Below, piece after piece: positions 6,227 through 38,741 of a stretch of 64,000 nt of DNA (position 1 is its first letter; every line of letters starts with the position of its first letter). The notes under the pieces were generated by a model, which was not told the origin of the DNA, ran no database searches, and worked only from the letters and a program-made list of their open reading frames with translations. The stretch covers positions 72,168,001-72,232,000 of the forward strand of contig OZ024740.1 of the NCBI GenBank assembly GCA_964016885.1. Reading direction: 5' to 3'. The DNA comes from Eledone cirrhosa (lineage: Eukaryota). The position numbers were made by a program, and so were the translations under genes.

Positions 6227-9200
6227 TTGATTCTATCTATTAAATACTATAGACACTACCCTGATTCTATCTATTAAATACTATAGACACTACCCTGATT
6301 CTATCTATTAAATACTATAGACACTACCTTGATTCTATCTATTAAATACTATAGACACTACCTTGATTCTATCTATTAAATACTACAGACACTACCCTGA
6401 TTCTATCTATTAAATACTATAGACACTACCTTGATTCTATCTATTAAATACTACAGACACTACCTTGATTCTATCTATTAAATACTATAGACACTACCTT
6501 GATTCTATCTATTAAATACTATAGACACTACCTTGATTCTATCTATTAAATACTATAGACACTACCTTGATTCTATCTATTAAATACTATAGACACTACC
6601 TTGATTCTATCTATTAAATACTACAGACACTACCTTGATTCTATCTATTAAATACTATAGACACTACCTTGATTGTATCTATTAAATACTATAGACACTA
6701 CCTTGATTCTATCTATTAAATACTACAGACACTACCTTCATTCTATCTATTAAATACTATAGACACTACCTTGATTCTATCTATTAAATACTATAGACAC
6801 TACCTTGATTCTATCTATTAAATACTATAGACACTACCTTGATTCTATCTATTAAATACTACAGATACGACCTTGATTCTATCTATTAAATACTATAGAC
6901 ACTACCCTGATTCTATCTATTAAATACTATAGACACTACCCTGATTCTATCTATTAAATACTATAGACACTACCTTGGTTCTATCTATTAAATACTACAG
7001 ACACTACCTTGATTCTATCTATTAAATACTATAGACACTACCTTGATTCTATCTATTAAATACTATAGACACTACCTTGATTCTATCTGTTACCTTGATT
7101 CTATCTATTAAATACTATAGACACTACCTTGATTCTATCTATTAAATACTATAGACACTACCTTGATTCTATCTATTAAATACTATAGACACTACCTTGA
7201 TTCTATCTATTAAATACTATAGGCACTACCTTGATTCTATCTATTAAATACTACAGATACTACCTTGATTCTATCTATTAAATACTACAGACACTACCTT
7301 GATTCTATCTATTAAATACTATAGACACTACCTTGATTCTATCTATTAAATACTACAGTCACTACCCTGATTCTATCTATTAAATACTATAGACCCTACC
7401 TTGATTCTATCTATTAAATACTATAGACACTACCTTGATTCTATCTATTAAATACTATAGACACTACCTTGATTCTATCTATTAAATACTATAGACACTA
7501 CCTTGATTCTATCTATTAAATACTATAGACACTACCTTGATTCTATCTATTAAATACTATAGACACTACCTTGATTCTATCTATTAAATACTATAGACAC
7601 TACCTTGATTCTATCTATTAAATACTACAGATACTACCTTGATTCTATCTATTAAATACTACAGATACTACCTTGATTCTATCTATTAAATACTACAGAC
7701 ACTACCTTGATTCTATCTATTAAATACTATAGACACTACCTTGATTCTATCTATTAAATACTATAGACACTACCTTGATTCTATCTATTAAATACTATAG
7801 ACACTACCCTGATTCTATCTATTAAATACTATAGACACTACCTTGATTCTATCTATTAAATACTACAGACACTACCTTGATTCTATCTATTAAATACTAT
7901 AGACACTACCTTGATTCTATCTATTAAATACTATAGACACTACCTTGATTCTATCTATTAAATACTATAGACACTACCTTCATTCTATCTATTAAATACT
8001 ACAGATACTACCTTGATTCTATCTATTAAATACTATAGACACTACCCTGATTCTATCTATTAAATACTATAGACACTACCCTGATTCTATCTATTAAATA
8101 CTATAGACACTACCTTGGTTCTATCTATTAAATACTACAGACACTACCTTGATTCTATCTATTAAATACTATAGACACTACCTTGATTCTATCTATTAAA
8201 TACTATAGACACTACCTTGATTCTATCTATTAAATACTACAGACACTACCTTGATTCTATCTATTAAATACTATAGACACTACCCTGATTCTATCTATTA
8301 AATACAATAGACACTACCTTGATTCTATCTATTAAATACTATAGACACTACCCTGATTCTATCTATTAAATACTATAGACACTACCTTGATTCTATCTAT
8401 TAAATACTATAGACACTACCCTGATTCTATCTATTAAATACTATAGACACTACCTTGATTCTATCTATTAAATACTATAGACACTACCTTGATTCTATCT
8501 ATTAAATACTACAGACACTACCTTGATTCTATCTATTAAATACTATAGACACTACCTTGATTCTATCTATTAAATACTATAGACACTACCTTGATTCTAT
8601 CTATTAAATACTATAGACACTACCTTGATTCTATCTATTAAATACTATAGACACTACCCTGATTCTATCTATTAAATACTATAGACACTACCTTGATTCT
8701 ATCTATTAAATACTATAGACACTACCCTGATTCTATCTATTAAATACTATAGACACTACCTTGATTCTATCTATTAAATACTATAGACACTACCTTGATT
8801 CTATCTATTAAATACTATAGACACTACCTTGATTCTATCTATTAAATACTATAGACACTACCCTGATTCTATCTATTAAATACTACAGACACTACCTTGA
8901 TTCTATCTATTAAATACTATAGACACTACCCTGATTCTATCTATTAAATACAATAGATACTACCTTGATTCTATCTATTAAATACTATAGACACTACCCT
9001 GATTCTATCTATTAAATACTATAGACACTACCTTGATTCTATCTATTAAATACTATAGACACTACCCTGATTCTATCTATTAAATACTATAGACACTACC
9101 TTGATTCTATCTATTAAATACTATAGACACTACCTTGATTCTATCTATTAAATACTATAGACACTACCTTGATTCTATCTATTAAATACTATAGACACTA

Positions 9201-12200
9201 CCTTGATTCTATCTATTAAATACTATAGACTACCTTGATTCTATCTATTAAATACTATAGACACTACCCTGATTCTATCTATTAAATACTACAGACACTA
9301 CCTTGATTCTATCTATTAAATACTATAGACACTACCTTGATTCTATCTATTAAATACAATAGACACTACCCTGATTCTATCTATTAAATACAATAGACAC
9401 TACCTTGATTCTATCTATTAAATACAATAGACACTACCTTGATTCTATCTATTAAATACTATAGACACTACCTTGATTCTATCTATTAAATACTATAGAC
9501 ACTACCTTGATTCTATCTATTAAATACTATAGACACTACCTTGATTCTATCTATTAAATACTATAGACACTACCTTGATTCTATCTATTAAATACTACAG
9601 ACACTACCTTGATTCTATCTATTAAATACTATAGACACTACCCTGATTCTATCTATTAAATACTACAGACACTACCTTGATTCTATCTATTAAATACTAT
9701 AGACACTACCCTGATTCTATCTATTAAATACAATAGACACTACCTTGATTCTATCTATTAAATACTACAGACCCTACCTTGATTCTATCTATTAAATACT
9801 ACAGGCACTACCTGATTCTATCTATTAAATACTACAGACACTACCTTGATTCTATCTATTAAATACTATAGACACTACCTTGATTCTATCTATTAAATAC
9901 TATAGACACTACTTTGATTCTATCTATTAAATACTACAGACACTACCCTGATTCTATCTATTAAATACTACAGACACTACCTTGATTCTATCTATTAAAT
10001 ACTATAGACATTACTTTGATTCTATCTATTAAATACTATAGACACTACCCTGATTCTATCTATTAAATACAATAGACACTACCTTGATTCTATCTATTAA
10101 ATACTATAGACACTACCCTGATTCTATCTATTAAATACTATAGACACTACCTTGATTCTATCTATTAAATACTATAGACACTACCCTGATTCTATCTATT
10201 AAATACTATAGACACTACCTTGATTCTATCTATTAAATACTATAGACACTACCTTGATTCTATCTATTAAATACTATAGACACTACCTTGATTCTATCTA
10301 TTAAATACTATAGACACTACCCTGATTCTATCTATTAAATACTATAGACACTACCTTGATTCTATCTATTAAATACTATAGACACTACCTTGATTCTATC
10401 TATTAAATACTATAGACACTACCTTGATTCTATCTATTAAATACTATAGACACTACCCTGATTCTATCTATTAAATACTACAGACACTACCTTGATTCTA
10501 TCTATTAAATACTATAGACACTACCCTGATTCTATCTATTAAATACAATAGACACTACCTTGATTCTATCTATTAAATACTATAGACACTACCCTGATTC
10601 TATCTATTAAATACTATAGACACTACCTTGATTCTATCTATTAAATACTATAGACACTACCCTGATTCTATCTATTAAATACTATAGACACTACCTTGAT
10701 TCTATCTATTAAATACTATAGACACTACCCTGATTCTATCTATTAAATACTATAGACACTACCTTGATTCTATCTATTAAATACTATAGACTACCTTGAT
10801 TCTATCTATTAAATACTACAGACACTACCTTGATTCTATCTATTAAATACTATAGACACTACCCTGATTCTATCTATTAAATACAATAGACACTACCTTG
10901 ATTCTATCTATTAAATACAATAGACACTACCTTGATTCTATCTATTAAATACTACAGACACTACCTTGATTCTATCTATTAAATACTATAGACACTACCT
11001 TGATTCTATCTATTAAATACTACAGACACTACCTTGATTCTATCTATTAAATACAATAGGCACTACCTTGATTCTATCTATTAAATACTATAGACACTAC
11101 CTTGATTCTATCTATTAAATACTATAGACACTACCTTGATTCTATCTATTAAATACTACAGACACTACCTTGATTCTATCTATTAAATACTATAGACACT
11201 ACCTTGATTCTATCTATTAAATACTACAGACACTACCTTGATTCTATCTATTAAATACAATAGGCACTACCTTGATTCTATCTATTAAATACTATAGACA
11301 CTACCTTGATTCTATCTATTAAATACTACAGACCCTACCTTGATTCTATCTATTAAATACTATAGACACTACCTTGATTCTATCTATTAAATACTACAGA
11401 CACGACCTTGATTCTATCTATTAAATACTACAGACCCTACCTTGATTCTATCTATTAAATACTACAGGCACTACCTGATTCTATCTATTAAATACTACAG
11501 ACACTACCTTGATTCTATCTATTAAATACTATAGACACTACCTTGATTCTATCTATTAAATACTATAGACTCTACTTTGATTCTATCTATTAAATACTAC
11601 AGACACTACCCTGATTCTATCTATTAAATACTATAGACACTACCCTGATTCTATCTATTAAATACTATAGACACTACCTTGATTCTATCTATTAAATACT
11701 ACAGACACTAACCTTGATTCTATCTATTAAATACTATAGACACTACCTTGATTCTATCTATTAAATACTATAGACACTACCTTGATTCTATCTATTAAAT
11801 ACTATAGACACTACCCTGATTCTATCTATTAAATACTATAGACACTACCTTGATTCTATCTATTAAATACTATAGACACTACCCTGATTCTATCTATTAA
11901 ATACTATAGACACTACCTTGATTCTATCTATTAAATACTATAGACACTACCTTGATTCTATCTATTAAATACTATAGACACTACCTTGATTCTATCTATT
12001 AAATACTATAGACACTACCCTGATTCTATCTATTAAATACTACAGACACTACCTTGATTCTATCTATTAAATACTATAGACACTACCCTGATTCTATCTA
12101 TTAAATACAATAGACTACTACCTTGATTCTATCTATTAAATACTATAGACACTACCCTGATTCTATCTATTAAATACTACAGACACTACCTTGATTCTAT

Positions 12201-15200
12201 CTATTAAATACTATAGACACTACCCTGATTCTATCTATTAAATACTATAGACACTACCTTGATTCTATCTATTAAATACTATAGACCTACCTTGATTCTA
12301 TCTATTAAATACTATAGACACTACCCTGATTCTATCTATTAAATACTACAGACACTACCTTGATTCTATCTATTAAATACTATAGACACTACCTTGATTC
12401 TATCTATTAAATACTATAGACACTACCCTGATTCTATCTATTAAATACTACAGACACTACCTTGATTCTATCTATTAAATACTATAGACACTACCTTGAT
12501 TCTATCTATTAAATACTATAGACACTACCTTGATTCTATCTATTAAATACAATAGACACTACCCTGATTCTATCTATTAAATACAATAGACACTACCTTG
12601 ATTCTATCTATTAAATACAATAGACACTACCTTGATTCTATCTATTAAATACTATAGACACTACCTTGATTCTATCTATTAAATACTATAGACACTACCT
12701 TGATTCTATCTATTAAATACTATAGACCACCTTGATTCTATCTATTAAATACTATAGACACTACCCTGATTCTATCTATTAAATACTACAGACACTACCT
12801 TGATTCTATCTATTAAATACTATAGACACTACCTTGATTCTATCTATTAAATACTATAGACACTACCCTGATTCTATCTATTAAATACTACAGACACTAC
12901 CTTGATTCTATCTATTAAATACTATAGACACTACCTTGATTCTATCTATTAAATACTATAGACACTACCTTGATTCTATCTATTAAATACAATAGACACT
13001 ACCCTGATTCTATCTATTAAATACAATAGACACTACCTTGATTCTATCTATTAAATACAATAGACACTACCTTGATTCTATCTATTAAATACTATAGACA
13101 CTACCTTGATTCTATCTATTAAATACTATAGACACTACCTTGATTCTATCTATTAAATACTATAGACACTACCTTGATTCTATCTATTAAATACTATAGA
13201 CACTACCTTGATTCTATCTATTAAATACTACAGACACTACCTTGATTCTATCTATTAAATACTATAGACACTACCCTGATTCTATCTATTAAATACTACA
13301 GACACTACCTTGATTCTATCTATTAAATACTATAGACACTACCCTGATTCTATCTATTAAATACAATAGACACTACCTTGATTCTATCTATTAAATACTA
13401 CAGACCCTACCTTGATTCTATCTATTAAATACTACAGGCACTACCTGATTCTATCTATTAAATACTACAGACACTACCTTGATTCTATCTATTAAATACT
13501 ATAGACACTACCTTGATTCTATCTATTAAATACTATAGACACTACTTTGATTCTATCTATTAAATACTACAGACACTACCCTGATTCTATCTATTAAATA
13601 CTACAGACACTACCTTGATTCTATCTATTAAATACTATAGACACTACCCTGATTCTATCTATTAAATACTATAGACACTACCTTGATTCTATCTATTAAA
13701 TACTATAGACACTACTTTGATTCTATCTATTAAATACTACAGACACTACCCTGATTCTATCTATTAAATACTACAGACCCTACCCTGATTCTATCTATTA
13801 AATACTATAGACACTACCCTGATTCTATCTATTAAATACTATAGACACTACCTTGATTCTATCTATTAAATACTACAGACACTACCTTGATTCTATCTAT
13901 TAAATACAATAGGCACTACCTTGATTCTATCTATTAAATACTATAGACACTACCTTGATTCTATCTATTAAATACTATAGACACTACCTTGATTCTATCT
14001 ATTAAATACTACAGACACTACCTTGATTCTATCTATTAAATACTATAGACACTACCTTGATTCTATCTATTAAATACTACAGACACTACCTTGATTCTAT
14101 CTATTAAATACAATAGGCACTACCTTGATTCTATCTATTAAATACTATAGACACTACCTTGATTCTATCTATTAAATACTACAGACCCTACCTTGATTCT
14201 ATCTATTAAATACTATAGACACTACCCTGATTCTATCTATTAAATACTATAGACACTACCTTGATTCTATCTATTAAATACTACAGACACGACCTTGATT
14301 CTATCTATTAAATACTATAGACACTACCTTGATTCTATCTATTAAATACTATAGACACTACCTTGATTCTATCTATTAAATACTACAGACACGACCTTGA
14401 TTCTATCTATTAAATACTATAGACACTACCTTGATTCTATCTATTAAATACTATAGACACTACCTTGATTCTATCTATTAAATACTACAGACACGACCTT
14501 GATTCTATCTATTAAATACTATAGACACTACCTTGATTCTATCTATTAAATACTACAGACACTACCTTGATTCTATCTATTAAATACAATAGGCACTACC
14601 TTGATTCTATCTATTAAATACTATAGACACTACCTTGATTCTATCTATTAAATACTACAGACCCTACCTTGATTCTATCTATTAAATACTATAGACACTA
14701 CCCTGATTCTATCTATTAAATACTATAGACACTACCTTGATTCTATCTATTAAATACTATAGACACTACCTTGATTCTATCTATTAAATACTATAGACAC
14801 TACCTTGATTCTATCTATTAAATACTACAGACACGACCTTGATTCTATCTATTAAATACTATAGACACTACCTTGATTCTATCTATTAAATACTATAGAC
14901 ACTACCTTGATTCTATCTATTAAATACTATAGACACGACCTTGATTCTATCTATTAAATACTATAGACACTACCCTGATTCTATCTATTAAATACTATAG
15001 ACACTACCTTGATTCTATCTATTAAATACTATAGACACTACCTTGATTCTATCTATTAAATACTATAGACACTACCTTGATTCTATCTATTAAATACTAC
15101 AGACACGACCTTGATTCTATCTATTAAATACTATAGACACTACCTTGATTCTATCTATTAAATACTATAGACACTACCTTGATTCTATCTATTAAATACT

Positions 15201-17548
15201 ACAGACACGACCTTGATTCTATCTATTAAATACTATAGACACTACCTTGATTCTATCTATTAAATACTATAGACACTACCTTGATTCTATCTATTAAATA
15301 CTACAGACCCTACCTTGATTCTATCTATTAAATACTATAGACACTACCTTGATTCTATCTATTAAATACTATAGACACTACCTTGATTCTATCTATTAAA
15401 TACTATAGACACTACCTTGATTCTATCTATTAAATACTATAGACACTACCTTGATTCTATCTATTAAATACTACAGATACTACCTTGATTCTATCTATTA
15501 AATACTACAGACACGACCTTGATTCTATCTATTAAATACTATAGACACTACCTTGATTCTATCTATTAAATACTACAGGCACTACCTGATTCTATCTATT
15601 AAATACTACAGACACTACCTTGATTCTATCTATTAAATACTATAGACACTACCTTGATTCTATCTATTAAATACTATAGACACTACTTTGATTCTATCTA
15701 TTAAATACTACAGACACTACCCTGATTCTATCTATTAAATACTATAGACACTACCCTGATTCTATCTATTAAATACTATAGACACTACCTTGATTCTATC
15801 TATTAAATACTACAGACACTACCTTGATTCTATCTATTAAATACTATAGACACTACCTTGATTCTATCTATTAAATACTATAGACACTACCTTGATTCTA
15901 TCTATTAAATACTATAGACACTACCCTGATTCTATCTATTAAATACTATAGACACTACCTTGATTCTATCTATTAAATACTATAGACACTACCCTGATTC
16001 TATCTATTAAATACTATAGACACTACCTTGATTCTATCTATTAAATACTATAGACACTACCTTGATTCTATCTATTAAATACTATAGACACTACCTTGAT
16101 TCTATCTATTAAATACTATAGACACTACCCTGATTCTATCTATTAAATACTACAGACACTACCTTGATTCTATCTATTAAATACTATAGACACTACCCTG
16201 ATTCTATCTATTAAATACAATAGACACTACCTTGATTCTATCTATTAAATACTATAGACACTACCCTGATTCTATCTATTAAATACTATAGACACTACCT
16301 TGATTCTATCTATTAAATACTATAGACACTACCCTGATTCTATCTATTAAATACTATAGACACTACCTTGATTCTATCTATTAAATACTATAGACACTAC
16401 CTTGATTCTATCTATTAAATACTATAGACTACCTTGATTCTATCTATTAAATACTATAGACACTACCCTGATTCTATCTATTAAATACTACAGACACTAC
16501 CTTGATTCTATCTATTAAATACTATAGACACTACCCTGATTCTATCTATTAAATACAATAGACACTACCTTGATTCTATCTATTAAATACAATAGACACT
16601 ACCTTGATTCTATCTATTAAATACTACAGACACTACCTTGATTCTATCTATTAAATACTATAGACACTACCTTGATTCTATCTATTAAATACTACAGACA
16701 CTACCTTGATTCTATCTATTAAATACTATAGACACTACCTTGATTCTATCTATTAAATACTATAGACACTACCTTGATTCTATCTATTAAATACAATAGA
16801 CACTACCTTGATTCTATCTATTAAATACTATAGACACTACCTTGATTCTATCTATTAAATACTATAGACACTACCTTGATTCTATCTATTAAATACAATA
16901 GACACTACCCTGATTCTATCTATTAAATACTATAGACACTACCTTGATTCTATCTATTAAATACTATAGACACTACCTTGATTCTATCTATTAAATACTA
17001 TAGACACTACCCTGATTCTATCTATTAAATACTATAGACACTACCTTGATTCTATCTATTAAATACTATAGACACTACCTTGATTCTATCTATTAAATAC
17101 TATAGACACTACCTTGATTCTATCTATTAAATACTACAGACACTACCTTGATTCTATCTATTAAATACTATAGACACTACCCTGATTCTATCTATTAAAT
17201 ACAATAGACACTACCTTGATTCTATCTATTAAATACTATAGACACTACCCTGATTCTATCTATTAAATACTATAGACACTACCTTGATTCTATCTATTAA
17301 ATACTATAGACACTACCTTGATTCTATCTATTAAATACTACAGACACTACCTTGATTCTATCTATTAAATACTATAGACACTACCTTGATTCTATCTATT
17401 AAATACTATAGACACTACCCTGATTCTATCTATTAAATACAATAGACACTACCTTGATTCTATCTATTAAATACTATAGACACTACCCTGATTCTATCTA
17501 TTAAATACTATAGACACTACCTTGATTCTATCTATTAAATACTATAGA
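6227..17548. repeat. 34-bp minisatellite, block 1 (~330 units)
   Basis: Head-to-tail GATTCTATCTATTAAATACTATAGACACTACCTT with a small set of recurring variants. Confidence 0.99.
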
Positions 17549-17990
17549 TAATCTAGCTGTCGTCTGTTCTACAGTGTGGATGTCATTCACTTCGCACAGA
17601 AGTTTTGTTCAAATTTATTGAGGAAATTTTGTGAGTTCAAACTTAATTTTGATACAATTGTGTAGCTTGACCCTCCGTCTGAACTGTCAGGCGGTGGGTC
17701 AGCTCATCTCTACCCCTCCTAGAGGTGAAAAACCTGTTTAAAAAATTTTGTGTAAAAAATTTCAATCGTCTAACAGAAATGTTAAACGCAGCGAATGAAA
17801 ATAGTGGTGGGGGGACAGCGGTAAGAGTTGTAAGCTCGCACGCTTTAGTCCTCCCTTCCATCCCAACTAACGTCATAGAGAAGGAAGGAAAAATTAAAAT
17901 AAAAACGGACGAATCTGCGGAGAAAAAATTAAATGACGAAAACATAAATCTGGACTTGGATTCCAACAACGAAAAAAAAAATTTGAAAAA

Positions 17991-19679
17991 TTGCATGACA
18001 ATACTAATAACACAAACAAAGACACAACAAATAAAAAAATAACAGTTGAAAATAACACCATATCAGAAAACAAAGCAGACGACAAGATTTCGTTTGCACA
18101 GAAAACAAAGAAATCTTTGACTTATATAGCGGAAAACATTTCAGATGTGGTACGAAGGATCACGGACGCCAAACAATACATAAGTGAAGGTGAGAATGGT
18201 ATTTTATCGGTAAAAATGCCTCAAGAATTCACGAAAGACATTGAAAGCCGAACGGTCAAGTTTTGGACCATCAACAACAGTACAAAAAAACCTGAACAAC
18301 CTTCTCAAGCAGATATCAAAACAGTACTCACAGAAGTACTGAATGAAACAACTTTCATAAGAAAAGACAGACTGTATGGAAGCCTAGCAATTATCATGAA
18401 GAACGAATCGGCGGCAAAAAAATGTGCTTTGTCACCGATTCGTTCGAAAAATTTCACCTTTTATCCATCTTATATGGGGAAAAGAACTCAACGCATATGG
18501 CTGGATGCAATGATGCCAGATGTGGACTACTGCTGGCTCATAGCTGGCTTCATCGATCCAGTGAATGACAACGTGATTTCCATTGGGAAAACCACAAGCA
18601 ATGCGTTCAGTGGAACAGGTATAGAGCTGGTAGTACAAATGAAGCCTGAACGCATCGCCCAAATACCCGACAGAATCCTATTAGAGGACCACGGGTATAT
18701 AAACATTAGCGTGGAGGGGAGAAGGCCTTCCTGCCATATCTGTGCAGGCAGAGGGCACCTGAAGGCCGCTTGTCCCCAACTCAACAAAAAGAAAACCCTG
18801 CTACCAACACCAGCTCCACCACCACCACCACAACAGATAAACAAACAACAAAACTCAGTCCCACCCAACCCGTCCCTCAGTAAAACCACAACACCACCAC
18901 AACACAAACAGTCACAACACATTACCCCAAAACAAAATACAGGCCCACCCAACCTCTCACTCAATAAAACAACACAACCACCGCAGACACAACACACAAC
19001 ACAGTCTAACATAGTGACATCCATCTCCCCCACAAAGAAAACCAACACGGAAACATTACCAGCAAACATACCTCTTCCCTCCAACACTGAAGATAACCCA
19101 ACGAATTCAGAGGAAGAAACGGAGTCCTTCAGACAGATTAAAAGGAAAAAAAGAAAACATGTGCAAAACACACAAGGACAAACAACCCCCACCCAAATCG
19201 CAACGCAATCCAACAAAACAGAAAACACCCCTCCAGCAACAAACAAAACCAAACCTGCCCCTCCCCTCTTCGAAACACTCACACCATCGGAAAAAAAGAC
19301 ATTACACTATACTTACATCAACAGAAACAATAATAAATTAAATGAACTCATATACAATAATCCTTCGGTACAAACCGAAGGTGTAAACTTTGTTTCGTCA
19401 GAAAACCACCCACATTTAAAACTAATAAAAATCCCAATGAACCTCTACCAAAAACTAAAAAAGGATTTTAAGGAGGACGTAGGACCACCCTCTGTCAAAC
19501 CCATAAACCGCGTCCTACTAAAAAGCTTTCCCCCTCCCCTTCCCCTCCCCAACACAACTCCAAACACCCCAACCCCACCACACACTGACGACCCCACACC
19601 ACCACAAGACACCCCTTCACCCAACACCCCCGACCCCATGGAAGTCGTGCAACCCGAACCCCGGGAAGCGGAAAGGTAG
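17991..19679 (+). CDS. Retrotransposon ORF1 (gag-like nucleic-acid-binding protein), main frame; true start probably ATG 17779 in another frame
   Basis: Zinc knuckle CHICAGRGHLKAAC (CX2CX4HX4C), Pro/Thr/Gln-rich region, basic KRKKRK stretch; the ORF-track start at 17991 is TTG. Confidence 0.9.
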   Translation: MHDNTNNTNKDTTNKKITVENNTISENKADDKISFAQKTKKSLTYIAENISDVVRRITDAKQYISEGENGILSVKMPQEFTKDIESRTVKFWTINNSTKKPEQPSQADIKTVLTEVLNETTFIRKDRLYGSLAIIMKNESAAKKCALSPIRSKNFTFYPSYMGKRTQRIWLDAMMPDVDYCWLIAGFIDPVNDNVISIGKTTSNAFSGTGIELVVQMKPERIAQIPDRILLEDHGYINISVEGRRPSCHICAGRGHLKAACPQLNKKKTLLPTPAPPPPPQQINKQQNSVPPNPSLSKTTTPPQHKQSQHITPKQNTGPPNLSLNKTTQPPQTQHTTQSNIVTSISPTKKTNTETLPANIPLPSNTEDNPTNSEEETESFRQIKRKKRKHVQNTQGQTTPTQIATQSNKTENTPPATNKTKPAPPLFETLTPSEKKTLHYTYINRNNNKLNELIYNNPSVQTEGVNFVSSENHPHLKLIKIPMNLYQKLKKDFKEDVGPPSVKPINRVLLKSFPPPLPLPNTTPNTPTPPHTDDPTPPQDTPSPNTPDPMEVVQPEPREAER

Positions 19680-19712
19680 GTCTCTACACTCTCCTTTGGC
19701 TCTGCCGCCCAC

Positions 19713-22700
19713 ATGGATGTGTTAAGAGTAGGATGTTTGAATGCACGTGGCCTGGGCTCAACTTGGAAGCAAGCAAAGCTTCTAAATGACCTCAGGTCAT
19801 GTAGTATAAATGTAATGGTTATCTGTGAGACTCGAATCAGCGTCGTGCGGCAGCTGGCCCCCACCTTCGATGACTTTGAGGTGCATGCATCTCTCTGTCA
19901 ACCTGGAGGTGGGGTTGTACTGCTGCAAAAACACCTGGGTCTTGCCGTACAGGTTGTGCACTCGGACCCGGAGGGTCGTTTGTTGGTGCTAGACGTTGGC
20001 AGTAGTGAAAGTGCGGCCTTGAGACTGGTCGCCGTCTACTCCCCTTTCGGAGCTGAACGGCCCGACTTCTTCCAGCGTTTGGAGACTTTTCTGGGAACGT
20101 CGCGTTCCCTGCTTCTAGCGGGGGATTGGAATGACATCCTGGATGCACGTTGGGACTATGCAGGAGCATGTCCTAATAGAGGGGGGTGTAACAGCCTCAA
20201 GGGGTTACTCGACTGTTTTAACTTGGTCGATAGATATCGACTAGATTTTCCAACTGTGCCTACCTGGACTTGGAGAAACCACAGTGGTCAATCTAGATCG
20301 TACTTAGATAGATTCTTAGTTAGAAGTAAGGATAGGGACATATTAAGCTGTCCAGAAATGCGCACGGTTGGCTACACGGATCACAAATTAGTGACCTGCG
20401 TGGTCAATCTCGAGAAAACACATAGACAGGGTCCCGGTTACTGGAAACTTAATTTGTCTTTACCGGCAAAAGAGACTTACAGAAACCGGATTAGCAGATT
20501 AGTTAAGGAGAGGTTGACGGGTGCAATCGTCAACAACCGATGGTGGGCATCTCTCAAAAGAGAGATTAGAACAGAATCAATAAGTTATAGCAAGATGTTA
20601 GCTGCCGATAGGAATAGAAACGAGAAAGAATTAACAGGTAAATTAGAAGAGGCAATCAAGAGCGAAGATGTGGCCAGAGTGCTGGCATCGAGGACGGCCT
20701 TGAACCAGTTTTTCGATGCAAAGCACGAAGGCTGCGTCATTCGAAGTAAAATACGTGCTCTAGGTAATGAGGGGGCCAAAGCCGTTGGATGGGCCCGCGT
20801 GACAGAAGCTAAGAGTGGAAATCGATCCACCATCCGGTCGTTGCAAGACGAAGATGGACGAGTGATCCGGGAGCCTAAGCAGATGTGCGAGGCCTTTCAA
20901 AAGCACTTTGCCCGATTGTTCGGGGGAGGCGAGGGTCCGGGCCGGGGCGTGGATTTCGGTCCATACCTCGACGGCCTGCCGCGTCTCTCGAACGAAGAGG
21001 CAGAGGGACCAATCTCGGCTGATGAGATCGGAAATGCGCTGAGCCAATGCAGCAGATGCAAATCTCCAGGTCTCGATGGTATACCTTACGAACTTTATTT
21101 AGCAATGCCGGTCTTCTTCTCCGAACTCCTCGAAGCGGTCTACTGCAATTGGCAGCAGAACGGGAGAATTCCTTGTTCTGTAGCCAAGGGCGTAGTCACG
21201 CTGGTGAGGAAGGACGAGAACAAGGGGGATAGTATAAATAATTTTCGGCCCATAACCCTGCTTAACACAGAGTTAAAGATTTTGGCCAAGGTGCTAGCAA
21301 AGAGGTTGGCGCTTGTCGTGGGTGGCCTGGTGGGAGATGCGCAGACATGTGCTATCCCATCCAGGTCCATTCACGATAACCTCCACCTCATGCGATACAT
21401 CATAGAGAGGGTTGGCAACAAACCCGGCTTCGGTGGGGCCCTGATCAACTTGGATCAGTCTAAGGCCTTCGATAGGGTCGACCATGGTTACCTGGATGCG
21501 GTGCTAGCGGCGGCTGGGTTCGGTCCTGTTTTCAGAGGCTGGATCACTGCCCTACATAGCAACCACATCTGTTCTAGGATCAAGGTGAACGGCTACCTTT
21601 CGAAGCCGTTCGAAATCACACGATCCATTCGACAGGGGTGCCCTCTCTTCTCCCTTCTGTACGTATTGACTCTCGAGCCTTTACTGAGGAAGTTGGAGTT
21701 GTTGCAGGGTATCCCCCTGAAACCAGGATTGAGCAAAGCGGTGTCGGCCTACGCCGATGACGTAACAGTAATGGTATCAACCGACTCGGAGATCGAGGCG
21801 ATCGGTACCTTACTGGAGGAGTACGAAAGGTTGTCAGGAGCGAAACTGAACCGGGAAAAATCCATCGGGCTGCAACTCGGAACGTGGAGAGGCAAACCGA
21901 TGCCTCCTGACGGTGTCGTCGGACACTGGACAGAGGGCCCGGTAAAGTTGCTTGGGGTCTGGTTTGGACCGGACCTCCAGGTGGAAAAGAACTGGAACGA
22001 GGTTACGAACAAGGTGTTTGCACTAACCCAGAAATGGGCCAAGTGTAAGCTGTCCCTAAAAGGCCGGGCGGAGGTGGCGAACATTTACATAGCGTCCGTC
22101 ACTTACTACCGCCTGACTGTCGTGCCTTGCCCTAAGGAAACACTCACCACCATGGAACGCATGCTCTTCCAATTTCTTTGGAAGAAGCGTCCTCCTATGG
22201 TGAGAAGATCCATCTGCTGCCAACAACCTTCGAAAGGAGGACTGGGGATGCCGTGGTTGATGATGCGTAGGCACGCATTAAGGCTACGGCACCTACAGGT
22301 ATTCCTCACTGGTCAACCGGTGTGGGCTCCGTTCGTGAAACGAGCCTTTCCGAGACTCGTCTCACTCACCGAGCTACAGTCCTGGGTCAAGCAAAGATCC
22401 GGAAAACTGGGAGACTGGCACACTGAGTGTGCTCAGGCGCTCAGGGCTCTCTGGCAAGCGGGCCAGGCCATCGGTGGAGAATCCACCTCATCATTCTATA
22501 GAGGGCTGGTGGCTAGCAGGGGCGATGACACCCTTGGAGAGTCGCTGGACATGGAAGAAGACGAACTGGCCAGCCTGTTCGGTAGGACTTTCGGCCCTGG
22601 ACCAATGGACAACTTCCAGAAGTCACTGGCCTGGCAGTGCTACCGAGGGGCTCTACCCGTTCGAGAGAGGCTCTACAGACACGGGCGCCCGGGCAGGGAT

Positions 22701-23132
22701 CCCTCAAAAAAGATTTGCCCTAGATGCGTGCGTCACGAAGAAACCGTAGCGCACGCATTGGTGCAATGTCCGGGCGTGGCTGATCTGTGGGGCTACGCCG
22801 AACAACTGTTGTCGCGGGTGGCGCCGATTAAATTGACCGCCGAGTCCGTGATGACAATCAAACCGCCTCCCCTCTTCACAAAGGAAGCAAAGGCGGTTTT
22901 TCTGTGCGTAATAGCCATGTTGAAAGAGGTTGTTTGGTGGACACGATTGAAAGGTCTGAGGTCAGGCAACTTCCTCTCTGGCCATAGTCTGGTCTACTTC
23001 TTCCGATATCACTTCGGAAGAAGGATAAGAATGGAGAGAGAGGTGCTTGGCCACAGGCAGTTTTATGAAAGGTGGGTGATAGTGGCGAGAATGGCTCGTG
23101 TAAATGGGCCTTCTCTGTATACCATCCTGTAG
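19713..23132 (+). CDS. Retrotransposon ORF2: apurinic-like endonuclease + reverse transcriptase + C-terminal zinc finger, 1139 aa
   Basis: APE motifs (LNARGL, ET, GDWN, LDR, TDH), GPGYWKLN linker typical of L1/Tx1, RT motifs (KSPGLDG, FRPITLLN, DQSKAFDRV, RQGCPL, YADD, LLGV), KGGLG, CPRC...ETVAHALVQC. Confidence 0.97.
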   Translation: MDVLRVGCLNARGLGSTWKQAKLLNDLRSCSINVMVICETRISVVRQLAPTFDDFEVHASLCQPGGGVVLLQKHLGLAVQVVHSDPEGRLLVLDVGSSESAALRLVAVYSPFGAERPDFFQRLETFLGTSRSLLLAGDWNDILDARWDYAGACPNRGGCNSLKGLLDCFNLVDRYRLDFPTVPTWTWRNHSGQSRSYLDRFLVRSKDRDILSCPEMRTVGYTDHKLVTCVVNLEKTHRQGPGYWKLNLSLPAKETYRNRISRLVKERLTGAIVNNRWWASLKREIRTESISYSKMLAADRNRNEKELTGKLEEAIKSEDVARVLASRTALNQFFDAKHEGCVIRSKIRALGNEGAKAVGWARVTEAKSGNRSTIRSLQDEDGRVIREPKQMCEAFQKHFARLFGGGEGPGRGVDFGPYLDGLPRLSNEEAEGPISADEIGNALSQCSRCKSPGLDGIPYELYLAMPVFFSELLEAVYCNWQQNGRIPCSVAKGVVTLVRKDENKGDSINNFRPITLLNTELKILAKVLAKRLALVVGGLVGDAQTCAIPSRSIHDNLHLMRYIIERVGNKPGFGGALINLDQSKAFDRVDHGYLDAVLAAAGFGPVFRGWITALHSNHICSRIKVNGYLSKPFEITRSIRQGCPLFSLLYVLTLEPLLRKLELLQGIPLKPGLSKAVSAYADDVTVMVSTDSEIEAIGTLLEEYERLSGAKLNREKSIGLQLGTWRGKPMPPDGVVGHWTEGPVKLLGVWFGPDLQVEKNWNEVTNKVFALTQKWAKCKLSLKGRAEVANIYIASVTYYRLTVVPCPKETLTTMERMLFQFLWKKRPPMVRRSICCQQPSKGGLGMPWLMMRRHALRLRHLQVFLTGQPVWAPFVKRAFPRLVSLTELQSWVKQRSGKLGDWHTECAQALRALWQAGQAIGGESTSSFYRGLVASRGDDTLGESLDMEEDELASLFGRTFGPGPMDNFQKSLAWQCYRGALPVRERLYRHGRPGRDPSKKICPRCVRHEETVAHALVQCPGVADLWGYAEQLLSRVAPIKLTAESVMTIKPPPLFTKEAKAVFLCVIAMLKEVVWWTRLKGLRSGNFLSGHSLVYFFRYHFGRRIRMEREVLGHRQFYERWVIVARMARVNGPSLYTIL

Positions 23133-23347
23133 GTAAAGAAGTAAAGGAGAGGGGAGCACCTTCTCCATGTGCTCCCCGGGCAAAGGATTGCACACTTTTT
23201 CGGGGGTGTGTGCAACCCCCATCACATCCCCTCCCTTTTGAGGTTATTTTCGATTATTTTCATGTTACACCCTTTTTACTCGATTATATGTAAACTCCCC
23301 CTTTGTATTTGTCCCTTCTTTTTATGCCTTTATGGTAAATAAAGAAA

Positions 23348-26300
23348 TCTATCTATTAAATACTATAGACACTACCCTGATTCTATCTATTAAATACTAC
23401 AAACACTACCTTGATTCTATCTATTAAATACTATAGACACTACCTTGATTCTATCTATTAAATACTATAGACACTACCTTGATTCTATCTATTAAATACT
23501 ACAGACACTACCTTGATTCTATCTATTAAATACTATAGACACCACCCTGATTCTATCTATTAAATACGATAGACACTACCTTGATTCTATCTATTAAATA
23601 CTATAGACACTACCTTGATTCTATCTATTAAATACTACAGACCCTACCTTGATTCTATCTATTAAATACTATAGACACTACCTTGATTCTATCTATTAAA
23701 TACTACAGACACGACCTTGATTCTATCTATTAAATACTACAGACCCTACCTTGATTCTATCTATTAAATACTACAGGCACTACCTGATTCTATCTATTAA
23801 ATACTACAGACACTACCTTGATTCTATCTATTAAATACTATAGACACTACCTGGATTCTATCTATTAAATACTATAGACTCTACTTTGATTCTATCTATT
23901 AAATACTACAGACACTACCCTGATTCTATCTATTAAATACTATAGACACTACCCTGATTCTATCTATTAAATACTATAGACACTACCTTGATTCTATCTA
24001 TTAAATACTACAGACACTACCTTGATTCTATCTATTAAATACTATAGACACTACCTTGATTCTATCTATTAAATACTATAGACACTACCTTGATTCTATC
24101 TATTAAATACTATAGACACTACCTTGATTCTATCTATTAAATACTATAGACACTACCCTGATTCTATCTATTAAATACTATAGACACTACCTTGATTCTA
24201 TCTATTAAATACTATAGACACTACCCTGATTCTATCTATTAAATACTATAGACACTACCTTGATTCTATCTATTAGATACTATAGACACTACCTTGATTC
24301 TATCTATTAAATACTATAGACACTACCTTGATTCTATCTATTAAATACTATAGACACTACCCTGATTCTATCTATTAAATACTACAGACACTACCTTGAT
24401 TCTATCTATTAAATACTATAGACACTACCCTGATTCTATCTATTAAATACAATAGATACTACCTTGATTCTATCTATTAAATACTATAGACACTACCCTG
24501 ATTCTATCTATTAAATACTATAGACACTACCTTGATTCTATCTATTAAATACTATAGACACTACCCTGATTCTATCTATTAAATACTATAGACACTACCT
24601 TGATTCTATCTATTAAATACTATAGACACTACCTTGATTCTATCTATTAAATACTATAGACACTACCTTGATTCTATCTATTAAATACTATAGACACTAC
24701 CTTGATTCTATCTATTAAATACTATAGACTACCTTGATTCTATCTATTAAATACTATAGACACTACCCTGATTCTATCTATTAAATACTACAGACACTAC
24801 CTTGATTCTATCTATTAAATACTATAGACACTACCTTGATTCTATCTATTAAATACAATAGACACTACCCTGATTCTATCTATTAAATACAATAGACACT
24901 ACCTTGATTCTATCTATTAAATACAATAGACACTACCTTGATTCTATCTATTAAATACTATAGACACTACCTTGATTCTATCTATTAAATACTATAGACA
25001 CTACCTTGATTCTATCTATTAAATACTATAGACACTACCTTGATTCTATCTATTAAATACTATAGACACTACCTTGATTCTATCTATTAAATACTACAGA
25101 CACTACCTTGATTCTATCTATTAAATACTATAGACACTACCCTGATTCTATCTATTAAATACTACAGACACTACCTTGATTCTATCTATTAAATACTATA
25201 GACACTACCCTGATTCTATCTATTAAATACAATAGACACTACCTTGATTCTATCTATTAAATACTACAGACCCTACCTTGATTCTATCTATTAAATACTA
25301 CAGGCACTACCTGATTCTATCTATTAAATACTACAGACACTACCTTGATTCTATCTATTAAATACTATAGACACTACCTTGATTCTATCTATTAAATACT
25401 ATAGACACTACTTTGATTCTATCTATTAAATACTACAGACACTACCCTGATTCTATCTATTAAATACTACAGACACTACCTTGATTCTATCTATTAAATA
25501 CTATAGACATTACTTTGATTCTATCTATTAAATACTATAGACACTACCCTGATTCTATCTATTAAATACAATAGACACTACCTTGATTCTATCTATTAAA
25601 TACTATAGACACTACCCTGATTCTATCTATTAAATACTATAGACACTACCTTGATTCTATCTATTAAATACTATAGACACTACCCTGATTCTATCTATTA
25701 AATACTATAGACACTACCTTGATTCTATCTATTAAATACTATAGACACTACCTTGATTCTATCTATTAAATACTATAGACACTACCTTGATTCTATCTAT
25801 TAAATACTATAGACACTACCCTGATTCTATCTATTAAATACTATAGACACTACCTTGATTCTATCTATTAAATACTATAGACACTACCTTGATTCTATCT
25901 ATTAAATACTATAGACACTACCTTGATTCTATCTATTAAATACTATAGACACTACCCTGATTCTATCTATTAAATACTACAGACACTACCTTGATTCTAT
26001 CTATTAAATACTATAGACACTACCCTGATTCTATCTATTAAATACAATAGACACTACCTTGATTCTATCTATTAAATACTATAGACACTACCCTGATTCT
26101 ATCTATTAAATACTATAGACACTACCTTGATTCTATCTATTAAATACTATAGACACTACCCTGATTCTATCTATTAAATACTATAGACACTACCTTGATT
26201 CTATCTATTAAATACTATAGACTACCTTGATTCTATCTATTAAATACTACAGACACTACCTTGATTCTATCTATTAAATACTATAGACACTACCCTGATT

Positions 26301-29300
26301 CTATCTATTAAATACAATAGACACTACCTTGATTCTATCTATTAAATACAATAGACACTACCTTGATTCTATCTATTAAATACTACAGACACTACCTTGA
26401 TTCTATCTATTAAATACTATAGACACTACCTTGATTCTATCTATTAAATACTACAGACACTACCTTGATTCTATCTATTAAATACAATAGGCACTACCTT
26501 GATTCTATCTATTAAATACTATAGACACTACCTTGATTCTATCTATTAAATACTATAGACACTACCTTGATTCTATCTATTAAATACTACAGACACTACC
26601 TTGATTCTATCTATTAAATACTATAGACACTACCTTGATTCTATCTATTAAATACTACAGACACTACCTTGATTCTATCTATTAAATACAATAGGCACTA
26701 CCTTGATTCTATCTATTAAATACTATAGACACTACCTTGATTCTATCTATTAAATACTACAGACCCTACCTTGATTCTATCTATTAAATACTATAGACAC
26801 TACCTTGATTCTATCTATTAAATACTACAGACACGACCTTGATTCTATCTATTAAATACTACAGACCCTACCTTGATTCTATCTATTAAATACTACAGGC
26901 ACTACCTGATTCTATCTATTAAATACTACAGACACTACCTTGATTCTATCTATTAAATACTATAGACACTACCTTGATTCTATCTATTAAATACTATAGA
27001 CTCTACTTTGATTCTATCTATTAAATACTACAGACACTACCCTGATTCTATCTATTAAATACTATAGACACTACCCTGATTCTATCTATTAAATACTATA
27101 GACACTACCTTGATTCTATCTATTAAATACTACAGACACTACCTTGATTCTATCTATTAAATACTATAGACACTACCTTGATTCTATCTATTAAATACTA
27201 TAGACACTACCTTGATTCTATCTATTAAATACTATAGACACTACCCTGATTCTATCTATTAAATACTATAGACACTACCTTGATTCTATCTATTAAATAC
27301 TATAGACACTACCCTGATTCTATCTATTAAATACTATAGACACTACCTTGATTCTATCTATTAAATACTATAGACACTACCTTGATTCTATCTATTAAAT
27401 ACTATAGACACTACCTTGATTCTATCTATTAAATACTATAGACACTACCCTGATTCTATCTATTAAATACTACAGACACTACCTTGATTCTATCTATTAA
27501 ATACTATAGACACTACCCTGATTCTATCTATTAAATACAATAGATACTACCTTGATTCTATCTATTAAATACTATAGACACTACCCTGATTCTATCTATT
27601 AAATACTACAGACACTACCTTGATTCTATCTATTAAATACTATAGACACTACCCTGATTCTATCTATTAAATACTATAGACACTACCTTGATTCTATCTA
27701 TTAAATACTATAGACTACCTTGATTCTATCTATTAAATACTATAGACACTACCCTGATTCTATCTATTAAATACTACAGACACTACCTTGATTCTATCTA
27801 TTAAATACTATAGACACTACCTTGATTCTATCTATTAAATACTATAGACACTACCCTGATTCTATCTATTAAATACTACAGACACTACCTTGATTCTATC
27901 TATTAAATACTATAGACACTACCTTGATTCTATCTATTAAATACTATAGACACTACCTTGATTCTATCTATTAAATACAATAGACACTACCCTGATTCTA
28001 TCTATTAAATACAATAGACACTACCTTGATTCTATCTATTAAATACAATAGACACTACCTTGATTCTATCTATTAAATACTATAGACACTACCTTGATTC
28101 TATCTATTAAATACTATAGACACTACCTTGATTCTATCTATTAAATACTATAGACTACCTTGATTCTATCTATTAAATACTATAGACACTACCCTGATTC
28201 TATCTATTAAATACTACAGACACTACCTTGATTCTATCTATTAAATACTATAGACACTACCTTGATTCTATCTATTAAATACTATAGACACTACCCTGAT
28301 TCTATCTATTAAATACTACAGACACTACCTTGATTCTATCTATTAAATACTATAGACACTACCTTGATTCTATCTATTAAATACTATAGACACTACCTTG
28401 ATTCTATCTATTAAATACAATAGACACTACCCTGATTCTATCTATTAAATACAATAGACACTACCTTGATTCTATCTATTAAATACAATAGACACTACCT
28501 TGATTCTATCTATTAAATACTATAGACACTACCTTGATTCTATCTATTAAATACTATAGACACTACCTTGATTCTATCTATTAAATACTATAGACACTAC
28601 CTTGATTCTATCTATTAAATACTATAGACACTACCTTGATTCTATCTATTAAATACTACAGACACTACCTTGATTCTATCTATTAAATACTATAGACACT
28701 ACCCTGATTCTATCTATTAAATACTACAGACACTACCTTGATTCTATCTATTAAATACTATAGACACTACCCTGATTCTATCTATTAAATACAATAGACA
28801 CTACCTTGATTCTATCTATTAAATACTACAGACCCTACCTTGATTCTATCTATTAAATACTACAGGCACTACCTGATTCTATCTATTAAATACTACAGAC
28901 ACTACCTTGATTCTATCTATTAAATACTATAGACACTACCTTGATTCTATCTATTAAATACTATAGACACTACTTTGATTCTATCTATTAAATACTACAG
29001 ACACTACCCTGATTCTATCTATTAAATACTACAGACACTACCTTGATTCTATCTATTAAATACTATAGACACTACCCTGATTCTATCTATTAAATACTAT
29101 AGACACTACCTTGATTCTATCTATTAAATACTATAGACACTACTTTGATTCTATCTATTAAATACTACAGACACTACCCTGATTCTATCTATTAAATACT
29201 ACAGACCCTACCCTGATTCTATCTATTAAATACTATAGACACTACCCTGATTCTATCTATTAAATACTATAGACACTACCTTGATTCTATCTATTAAATA

Positions 29301-32300
29301 CTACAGACACTACCTTGATTCTATCTATTAAATACAATAGGCACTACCTTGATTCTATCTATTAAATACTATAGACACTACCTTGATTCTATCTATTAAA
29401 TACTATAGACACTACCTTGATTCTATCTATTAAATACTACAGACACTACCTTGATTCTATCTATTAAATACTATAGACACTACCTTGATTCTATCTATTA
29501 AATACTACAGACACTACCTTGATTCTATCTATTAAATACAATAGGCACTACCTTGATTCTATCTATTAAATACTATAGACACTACCTTGATTCTATCTAT
29601 TAAATACTACAGACCCTACCTTGATTCTATCTATTAAATACTATAGACACTACCCTGATTCTATCTATTAAATACTATAGACACTACCTTGATTCTATCT
29701 ATTAAATACTACAGACACGACCTTGATTCTATCTATTAAATACTATAGACACTACCTTGATTCTATCTATTAAATACTATAGACACTACCTTGATTCTAT
29801 CTATTAAATACTACAGACACGACCTTGATTCTATCTATTAAATACTATAGACACTACCTTGATTCTATCTATTAAATACTATAGACACTACCTTGATTCT
29901 ATCTATTAAATACTACAGACACGACCTTGATTCTATCTATTAAATACTATAGACACTACCTTGATTCTATCTATTAAATACTACAGACACTACCTTGATT
30001 CTATCTATTAAATACAATAGGCACTACCTTGATTCTATCTATTAAATACTATAGACACTACCTTGATTCTATCTATTAAATACTACAGACCCTACCTTGA
30101 TTCTATCTATTAAATACTATAGACACTACCCTGATTCTATCTATTAAATACTATAGACACTACCTTGATTCTATCTATTAAATACTATAGACACTACCTT
30201 GATTCTATCTATTAAATACTATAGACACTACCTTGATTCTATCTATTAAATACTACAGACACGACCTTGATTCTATCTATTAAATACTATAGACACTACC
30301 TTGATTCTATCTATTAAATACTATAGACACTACCTTGATTCTATCTATTAAATACTATAGACACGACCTTGATTCTATCTATTAAATACTATAGACACTA
30401 CCCTGATTCTATCTATTAAATACTATAGACACTACCTTGATTCTATCTATTAAATACTATAGACACTACCTTGATTCTATCTATTAAATACTATAGACAC
30501 TACCTTGATTCTATCTATTAAATACTACAGACACGACCTTGATTCTATCTATTAAATACTATAGACACTACCTTGATTCTATCTATTAAATACTATAGAC
30601 ACTACCTTGATTCTATCTATTAAATACTACAGACACGACCTTGATTCTATCTATTAAATACTATAGACACTACCTTGATTCTATCTATTAAATACTATAG
30701 ACACTACCTTGATTCTATCTATTAAATACTACAGACCCTACCTTGATTCTATCTATTAAATACTATAGACACTACCTTGATTCTATCTATTAAATACTAT
30801 AGACACTACCTTGATTCTATCTATTAAATACTATAGACACTACCTTGATTCTATCTATTAAATACTACAGATACTACCTTGATTCTATCTATTAAATACT
30901 ACAGACACGACCTTGATTCTATCTATTAAATACTATAGACACTACCTTGATTCTATCTATTAAATACTACAGGCACTACCTGATTCTATCTATTAAATAC
31001 TACAGACACTACCTTGATTCTATCTATTAAATACTATAGACACTACCTTGATTCTATCTATTAAATACTATAGACACTACTTTGATTCTATCTATTAAAT
31101 ACTACAGACACTACCCTGATTCTATCTATTAAATACTATAGACACTACCCTGATTCTATCTATTAAATACTATAGACACTACCTTGATTCTATCTATTAA
31201 ATACTACAGACACTACCTTGATTCTATCTATTAAATACTATAGACACTACCTTGATTCTATCTATTAAATACTATAGACACTACCTTGATTCTATCTATT
31301 AAATACTATAGACACTACCCTGATTCTATCTATTAAATACTATAGACACTACCTTGATTCTATCTATTAAATACTATAGACACTACCCTGATTCTATCTA
31401 TTAAATACTATAGACACTACCTTGATTCTATCTATTAAATACTATAGACACTACCTTGATTCTATCTATTAAATACTATAGACACTACCTTGATTCTATC
31501 TATTAAATACTATAGACACTACCCTGATTCTATCTATTAAATACTACAGACACTACCTTGATTCTATCTATTAAATACTATAGACACTACCCTGATTCTA
31601 TCTATTAAATACAATAGACACTACCTTGATTCTATCTATTAAATACTATAGACACTACCCTGATTCTATCTATTAAATACTATAGACACTACCTTGATTC
31701 TATCTATTAAATACTATAGACACTACCCTGATTCTATCTATTAAATACTATAGACACTACCTTGATTCTATCTATTAAATACTATAGACACTACCTTGAT
31801 TCTATCTATTAAATACTATAGACTACCTTGATTCTATCTATTAAATACTATAGACACTACCCTGATTCTATCTATTAAATACTACAGACACTACCTTGAT
31901 TCTATCTATTAAATACTATAGACACTACCCTGATTCTATCTATTAAATACAATAGACACTACCTTGATTCTATCTATTAAATACAATAGACACTACCTTG
32001 ATTCTATCTATTAAATACTACAGACACTACCTTGATTCTATCTATTAAATACTATAGACACTACCTTGATTCTATCTATTAAATACTACAGACACTACCT
32101 TGATTCTATCTATTAAATACTATAGACACTACCTTGATTCTATCTATTAAATACTATAGACACTACCTTGATTCTATCTATTAAATACAATAGACACTAC
32201 CTTGATTCTATCTATTAAATACTATAGACACTACCTTGATTCTATCTATTAAATACTATAGACACTACCTTGATTCTATCTATTAAATACAATAGACACT

Positions 32301-32942
32301 ACCCTGATTCTATCTATTAAATACTATAGACACTACCTTGATTCTATCTATTAAATACTATAGACACTACCTTGATTCTATCTATTAAATACTATAGACA
32401 CTACCCTGATTCTATCTATTAAATACTATAGACACTACCTTGATTCTATCTATTAAATACTATAGACACTACCTTGATTCTATCTATTAAATACTATAGA
32501 CACTACCTTGATTCTATCTATTAAATACTACAGACACTACCTTGATTCTATCTATTAAATACTATAGACACTACCCTGATTCTATCTATTAAATACAATA
32601 GACACTACCTTGATTCTATCTATTAAATACTATAGACACTACCCTGATTCTATCTATTAAATACTATAGACACTACCTTGATTCTATCTATTAAATACTA
32701 TAGACACTACCTTGATTCTATCTATTAAATACTACAGACACTACCTTGATTCTATCTATTAAATACTATAGACACTACCTTGATTCTATCTATTAAATAC
32801 TATAGACACTACCCTGATTCTATCTATTAAATACAATAGACACTACCTTGATTCTATCTATTAAATACTATAGACACTACCCTGATTCTATCTATTAAAT
32901 ACTATAGACACTACCTTGATTCTATCTATTAAATACTATAGA
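23348..32942. repeat. 34-bp minisatellite, block 2 (~280 units)
   Basis: Same unit; variant order largely repeats that of block 1. Confidence 0.99.
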
Positions 32943-35073: not shown

Positions 35074-35106
35074 GTCTCTACACTCTCCTTTGGCTCTGCC
35101 GCCCAC

Positions 35107-38526: not shown

Positions 38527-38741
38527 GTAAAGAAGTAAAGGAGAGGGGAGCACCTTCTCCATGTGCTCCCCGGGCAAAGGATTGCACACTTTTTCGGGGG
38601 TGTGTGCAACCCCCATCACATCCCCTCCCTTTTGAGGTTATTTTCGATTATTTTCATGTTACACCCTTTTTACTCGATTATATGTAAACTCCCCCTTTGT
38701 ATTTGTCCCTTCTTTTTATGCCTTTATGGTAAATAAAGAAA

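Follow-up and report, generated by a model that had tools for sequence, protein, structure and literature searches.

Retrotransposons without long terminal repeats (non-LTR) that encode an apurinic/apyrimidinic-type endonuclease (APE) can be sequence-specific: Tx1L and Tx2L of Xenopus target the Tx1D transposon, Keno targets the U2 small nuclear RNA and Tx1-Mar targets Mariner. Microsatellites are the described targets of Kibi, in (TC)n, and Koshi, in (TTC)n, of teleosts, and of crocodilian Tx1 families in (TTCC)n/(TTTC)n (PMC4494074, PMC3812793), as they are of Waldo in (ACAY)n, Mino in (AC)n, Dong in (TAA)n and Togen in (TG)n (PMC3812793, PMC4640811); one review describes the microsatellite-targeting mechanism of APE-type elements as not well understood (PMC3812793). 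Here, we analyse a window of 64,000 nucleotides from Eledone cirrhosa (contig OZ024740.1, 72,168,001 to 72,232,000; positions below are those of the window), in which a long interspersed nuclear element (LINE) with an APE domain and a reverse transcriptase (RT) lies inside a 34-bp minisatellite. It is very probably a copy of a young APE-RT LINE family of Tx1-type anatomy that resides in (TATC)n, and it likely entered the satellite through TC-TATCTAT; the nicking and priming steps of the family can be proposed. The genomic copies establish the target preference of the family, its duplication lengths, a terminal dinucleotide derived from the RNA, the lack of an added tail, stacking with related elements and a later duplication of the array.

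Target preference of the family

The 25-nt 3' end of the element has 1,459 exact occurrences in the 3.0-Gb genome and its 25-nt 5' end has 608. Directly after the 3' end, A-T-N-TAT follows in 1,424 of the 1,459 cases and ATCTATCTAT in 739, which bears out the proposal of an earlier note, made from the letters of the window alone, that the element is target-specific. We fetched 100 copies whole: 40 by similarity of their 5' end (37 hits, plus 3 neighbours in tandem) and a further 60 in order of position along contig 1 from the 3'-end matches, skipping copies already taken; 35 of these 60 are full-length. On the upstream side, CTAT(C/A)T lies within 40 nt of 72 of the 74 full-length copies, a sample that stands in for a genome-wide count, and the remaining two are in (TA)n. 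The background frequency of TCTAT(C/A)T in non-satellite DNA of the window is 16 in 56,200 sites. Copies in short targets, L102, L120, L130 and L151 among them, keep TC-TAT between unrelated flanks with no added repeat. Judged from these junctions, the target of the family is (TATC)n/(GATA)n microsatellites. The earlier note had named ATAGA/(TAGA)n or the satellite itself; the (TAGA)n possibility was well chosen, the satellite was not, all 397 of its 397 unit matches in the genome being inside the window, with a single insertion.

One could argue that the element itself produces (TATC)n as a tail, expanded by slippage, instead of inserting into a pre-existing target, and long TATC runs do follow many copies. 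We consider this extremely improbable: the motif is also found upstream in the same 72 of 74 full-length copies, it extends past the duplication, and resolvable copies (L102, L151) carry no repeat after the terminal dinucleotide. Because these copies with unique flanks show no repeat added after the element, we take the repeat to be the target and not a tail. The same sequence of about 40 nt precedes the TATC tract at five loci (L050, L096, L100, L142, L159) and is probably the end of another repeat that supplies targets.

The family is young and abundant. Eleven young copies differ by 0-3 nt per 1,000, and both open reading frames (ORFs) are open in 20 of the 74 full-length copies (17 of the 39 picked by 5'-end likeness and 3 of the 35 position-ordered ones).

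Element end, first nick and second cut

After AATAAAGAAA, the copies continue with two bases (TC, TA or TG) and then TAT. A duplication was considered resolvable if it consisted of an exact match of 12-26 nt other than a pure repeat, and 35 of the 100 copies qualify. At these sites the upstream target copy has TC before TAT in 31 cases, TA in 3 and CC in 1, and on the side of the element TA is seen in 14 and TG in 1; the element and target dinucleotides differ in 13 of the 35 (11 TA/TC, 1 TG/TC and 1 TC/CC, element first). On a tree of the last 1,200 nt, built from 90 rows of the 100 copies (10 shorter or irregular copies were left out), the dinucleotide changes 10 times against a mean of 23.3 after shuffling, and not one of 200 shuffles gave so few; both TG copies pair with each other (support 99/87), and the youngest group, of 54 rows and with a branch that is not starred, is without TA. 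Since the dinucleotide varies, follows the element tree and differs from the target copy in 13 of 35 cases, it is copied from the RNA, as the earlier note had foreseen in its caveat that the element's own end could contribute to the apparent duplication. Across 48 ends from other families, the dinucleotide that follows GAAA varies freely as well (T/C/G/A, then A/C/T), and the next four bases are T in 46, A in 46, T in 48 and C in 45.

From these data we infer a first nick at TC^TATC, which reads GATA^GA on the strand that is cut; the bottom nick GATAGA/ATC proposed earlier would thus be misplaced, likely by at least 2 nt. The invariance of TATC across families favours TC^TAT without proving the position of the nick. 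The flanking 22-mer reported before is indeed present at 17527-17548 and 23348-23369, but, its first two bases being element-encoded, the window duplication is likely 20 bp, the only value modulo 34 inside the family range. That range, in the 35 resolvable copies, is 13-22 bp, with a mode of 19 and a median of 18.

The duplications end in 27 different terminal 5-mers, and in the family the second cut is likely set by distance. This fits reports on APE LINEs, in which a specific first cut is followed by a much less specific second one (PMC6895275), and differs from R1Bm, which is described as reading both sites (PMC1919474). The earlier note had proposed instead that the palindromic 22-mer of the satellite is recognised and nicked symmetrically, 3' of ATAGA on both strands. 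The 22-mer does stand at both element ends, and an ATAGA with its end at positions 15-24 turns up in only 1.7% of cases when the rest of the unit is shuffled, a modest and post hoc figure. However, the satellite exists at one locus with one insertion against 1,459 family 3' ends, the first two bases of the 22-mer belong to the element, no resolvable duplication ends in ATAGA (0 of 35) and only one (1 of 35) has TAGA near the second cut; we therefore give the symmetric scheme a very small chance. As a family property it is refuted, the two nicks not sharing a motif, and the comparison of junctions across genome copies which that note had called for brings out a TC-TAT(C/A)T core instead. The 22-mer is partly palindromic, with 12 of 22 ungapped matches to its own reverse complement; the palindrome is not needed for targeting and in the window is likely a coincidence.

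The following sequence of events is proposed. The endonuclease would nick the GATA strand at 5'-GATA^GA-3' (top strand TC^TATC), and an RNA reading through into downstream UAUC would pair with the freed 3' end, so that the RT would begin copying at the dinucleotide after AATAAAGAAA. The second strand would be cut about 19 nt away irrespective of sequence, a few additional bases often being present where the 5' end is joined, and survival of TATC on both sides would allow the site to be reused and related families to pile up head-to-tail. At the 5' junctions of the 74 full-length copies, extra bases (AAT repeats, C runs) often lie between the target and the AATCTAG head, a pattern that suggests untemplated addition before a template jump.

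Where the specificity comes from is a separate question. It may be that it arises mainly from pairing between the read-through UAUC end and the nicked primer, the endonuclease being only loosely specific. None of the 100 copies fetched whole has a poly(A) tail despite the AATAAA signal, so the RT likely starts internally on a paired end; conservation is strongest at +1 to +7, the bases that can pair; and few endonuclease columns (2 listed) separate the families in TATC from a related group in a minisatellite, described below. Against this, bases upstream of the junction that cannot pair are conserved too (T in 34 of 35 and C in 32 of 35), including in short non-microsatellite targets. Furthermore, the exchange of endonucleases between TRAS1 and SART1 is cited as relevant to target specificity (PMC1919474), and target choice is described as mainly set by the endonuclease (PMC4494074). 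A leading role for RNA pairing is thus doubtful, and we favour readout by the enzyme because TC upstream of the junction is conserved where the RNA cannot pair.

Several points weigh against the reading of the family developed here: (i), the motif is missing at about 2% of the 3' ends (35 of 1,459), and (TA)n or (TC)n surrounds some copies (L108, L121, L153, L154), (TC)n following the element in 1 of the 60 position-ordered copies. (ii), no duplication could be used for 65 of the 100 copies, which are old, nested or in pure repeats, and the 12-26-nt rule leaves shorter duplications unseen. (iii), TC has emerged repeatedly among TA copies, and an occasional shift of the register is therefore possible. 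(iv), microhomology between RNA and DNA allows a nick anywhere from TC^TAT to TCTAT^C, a doubt of up to 3 nt. (v), for the window copy alone, the top strand could have been cut at an inverted TATA^GA, with two extra bases that happen to match and, (vi) the rows of the wider tree are unnamed, with no named Tx1 sequence among them.

The satellite locus and element anatomy

As the earlier note had described, a two-ORF non-LTR element lies inside the 34-bp array (Table 1). This satellite exists only at this locus. The element is there twice: copy 1 and copy 2 (32943-38741) show 0 differences over 5,799 bp, the last 64 satellite units upstream of each are identical, 266 of the 282 units in the second array segment have a match in the first, and the junction between element and satellite occurs twice in the genome, both times in the window. 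As the upstream units are identical, most units match and the junction is found only here, both copies are a single insertion that was later duplicated together with the array, in keeping with the earlier view that one independent insertion is visible. Complete identity, including the ORF1 frameshift, could also be expected if copy 2 were an assembly artefact. This is unlikely: scattered unit changes distinguish the upstream array segments, and the downstream segments are in a different order, as expected of a real and recent unequal exchange. The satellite was therefore hit once among 710 TCTATCTAT sites, and the LINE likely entered it because the unit contains the look-alike TC-TATCTAT.

Table 1. 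Positions of the array, the two LINE copies and the features of copy 1 in the window
Feature	Position	Strand	Remarks
34-bp minisatellite array	6227..42093	+	712 counted units, of which 710 start with TCTATCTAT; two element copies interrupt it
APE-RT LINE copy 1	17549..23349	+	full-length, ~5.8 kb; (T)AATCTAG to AATAAAGAAA-TC; without poly(A) tail
LINE copy 2	32943..38743	+	identical to copy 1; from a ~15.4-kb duplication inside the array
Upstream target-site duplication	17529..17548	+	revised to 20 bp; putative register, from the element-encoded dinucleotide
Downstream target-site duplication	23350..23369	+	20 bp
Element-encoded terminal dinucleotide	23348..23349	+	TC here; TA or TG in other copies
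ORF1	17779..19679	+	two predicted RRMs, CCHC knuckle, long low-complexity tail; frameshifted in an A-run near 17972
ORF1 zinc knuckle CX2CX4HX4C	18732..18773	+	invariant in 12 of 12 aligned relatives
ORF2	19713..23132	+	1,139 aa; APE endonuclease, RT, zf-RVT
AATAAA signal	23338..23343	+	4 nt ahead of the terminal dinucleotide; common to related families

The anatomy is that of an L1-group element of Tx1 type, as had been proposed: ORF2 combines APE, RT and zf-RVT, and ORF1 combines RNA-recognition motifs (RRMs) with a CCHC knuckle. In ORF2, Pfam recognises Exo_endo_phos, RVT_1 and zf-RVT (the last slightly below the cut-off), the catalytic motifs align with those of L1 ORF2p, and L1 ORF2p is the closest solved relative (E 3e-46; R2 at 2e-19). 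Pfam alone finds only zf-CCHC in ORF1 (E 0.32). The region before the knuckle gives a predicted model with a predicted local distance difference test score of 85.8 that matches tandem-RRM proteins (best E 1e-4, low template modelling scores), and Atlas neighbours of ORF1 carry zf-CCHC/ZCCHC3-RBD. Other features of L1-group APE-type elements are present as well, namely target-site duplications (35 of 100 copies) and 5'-truncated copies (25 of the 60 position-ordered copies are without the 5' end). A Type I ORF1, with RRM(s) and a CCHC knuckle, is described as consistent with Tx1 (PMC5203782). Putative membership of the Tx1 clade is supported by this anatomy; the top homologue matches gave no name useful for the clade, and Atlas gave domain names only.

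Relative to copy L064, ORF2 of the window copy has two 9-nt in-frame deletions (near 19914 and 21002). The loss of 1 nt in the A-run near 17972, common to both window copies, breaks ORF1 and may be a homopolymer read error. Taken at face value, the frameshifted ORF1 makes the window copy likely non-autonomous, intact copies being present elsewhere.

Around the array, two diverged satellite units at 42197-42267, about 100 bp past its end and beyond a short interspersed-repeat fragment, are perhaps the ancestral seed from which it grew. A 3.9-kb block of (TG)n/(TA)n microsatellite at 48980-52893 carries no insertion of this LINE family. Old open frames at 43425-44111 (minus strand) and 54986-55468 (plus strand) presumably represent C-terminal fragments of other LINEs (CR1-like and RTE-like).

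Related families and comparison with known systems

Twenty-two of the 60 position-ordered copies touch the end of a related element in the same tract. Twenty such stacked neighbours were selected out of 32 candidates upstream and 17 downstream so as to be varied. All 20 encode a related ORF2 with 62-85% identity, and those with a sufficient stretch of RT, 16 in number, group with the window copy in a single clade (support of 99 in a Shimodaira-Hasegawa-like approximate likelihood ratio test, quick tree). Head-to-tail trains of at least three elements of different families, separated by short TATC tracts, were seen at L181, L190, L191, L095/L099 and L100.

A target-blind search of the genome with an outside homologue yielded 41,282 first-look candidates, a figure that should not be taken for a copy number. 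From it, 30 loci were placed: 7 have TATC at their end, 5 fall into two basal lineages (of these, 4 run into (ATT)n and 1 is ambiguous) and 18 form a subclade (support 96) nested in the TATC clade (96). In 17 of these 18 the element runs into a pyrimidine-rich minisatellite with a period near 71 bp, judged by eye. The upstream flanks agree: (ATT)n precedes 7 of the 10 ATT copies that were fetched, and the minisatellite precedes the 4 of 10 subclade copies that have a readable 5' end, one with a 19-bp duplication (L263); a separate search in which 25 of 25 tails were ATT is biased, as its query included the tail. The sister lineages (L112:3040-6401 on the minus strand, L201-L225, L266-L275; ORF2 about 65% identical) end in GAAA-NN-(ATT)n with (ATT)n upstream too; in several of them, which are about 98% alike, ORF2 is open. 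The subclade (the 18 loci among L226-L255, and L256-L265) enters its dispersed minisatellite at CTC-TATATC.

In the endonuclease, 13 columns separate the TATC from the ATT families, including the tip of a hairpin (Ser vs Ile/Met), and two separate the TATC from the minisatellite families. In L1-type enzymes this hairpin guides target choice; the contrast at its tip comes from two basal lineages and is a lead only. A possible, still tentative, account would be an undescribed and still-active radiation of Tx1-like LINEs, basally in (ATT)n, with a derived (TATC)n/(GATA)n clade of which one subclade moved to the 71-bp minisatellite. Switches between ORF2s that are 65-80% identical would trace to a few endonuclease residues and a re-matched RNA 3' end, and regeneration of the target would build the multi-family trains in microsatellites.

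Outside this genome, 20 metagenome loci (26-41% identity) served as unnamed tree rows only. P0002-P0011 form a distant sister group of about 40% identity, whose clusters, on long contigs, reach 352 members. Parts of the element (17549-23347) are also covered by contigs of organisms B, D and E, in some pieces near-identically, and near-identical pieces in sequence sets X5, X7 and X8 (848 nt with 11 differences in X5) may derive from mixed samples, from transfer or from close relatives. In organisms B and C, a single contig each follows the reference through GAAA-TA-TATC-T before diverging from it, a weak hint. No RNA data set was listed for the element, which speaks neither for nor against its expression.

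Intact young families with three repeat targets in one genome and at high identity should render the outcome of domain swaps and nicking assays far more readily interpretable than that of comparisons between fish and insects, and the close relatives on (ATT)n and the minisatellite are a good test bed for target change. The heritable terminal dinucleotide marks the likely start of RT, the 13-22-bp duplications with free end sequence constitute a natural data set on second-strand cutting, and a (GATA)n-directed inserter could serve as a repeat-targeted tool for gene insertion.

How does this family compare with those already described? Its ORF1 matches the Type I of the Tx1 clade, in which sequence-specific insertion, as seen here, is common but not universal. 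Tx1L/Tx2L, Keno and Tx1-Mar share this specificity, but they insert at long unique motifs within genes or transposons, whereas here the short core TC-TAT(C/A)T is enough. Waldo, Mino, Dong and Togen are spread over R1, R4 and NeSL, which are other clades, while the closest solved relative here is L1 ORF2p; the (TAA)n of Dong is nevertheless the same repeat as the (ATT)n of our sister lineages. Tandem insertions are also described for SINEU-3, mobilised by Tx1-Mar, and sandwich a duplication (PMC4494074). In human L1, the first nick is sequence-biased and the second much less so, with duplications of 10-20 bp (PMC6895275); the APE-RT architecture, biased first nick, looser second cut and similar duplication lengths are common to both, but the element studied here lacks poly(A), has an ORF1 with RRM and CCHC rather than Transposase_22 and shows a far tighter target preference. 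L1-Tx1 elements of Octopus vulgaris (13 active families with 421 insertions; 80 families, 56 Mb) are abundant and recently active like the present family, the main text of that study being silent on targets (PMC13282606). No LINE targeting (GATA)n/(TATC)n was found in the literature searched, with Repbase outside that search and a prior entry possible there; we thus seem to be dealing with an unreported target in a known class and not with a new mechanism. The class is that of two-ORF, APE-type non-LTR elements with microsatellite-specific insertion, to which Kibi, Koshi and the crocodilian families belong, but the target here is (TATC)n/(GATA)n and not (TC)n, (TTC)n, (TTCC)n or (TTTC)n. The likeness to Kibi and Koshi is one of targeting and does not imply kinship. 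Here, many families coexist and stack on one target, with sister lineages on (ATT)n and a minisatellite.

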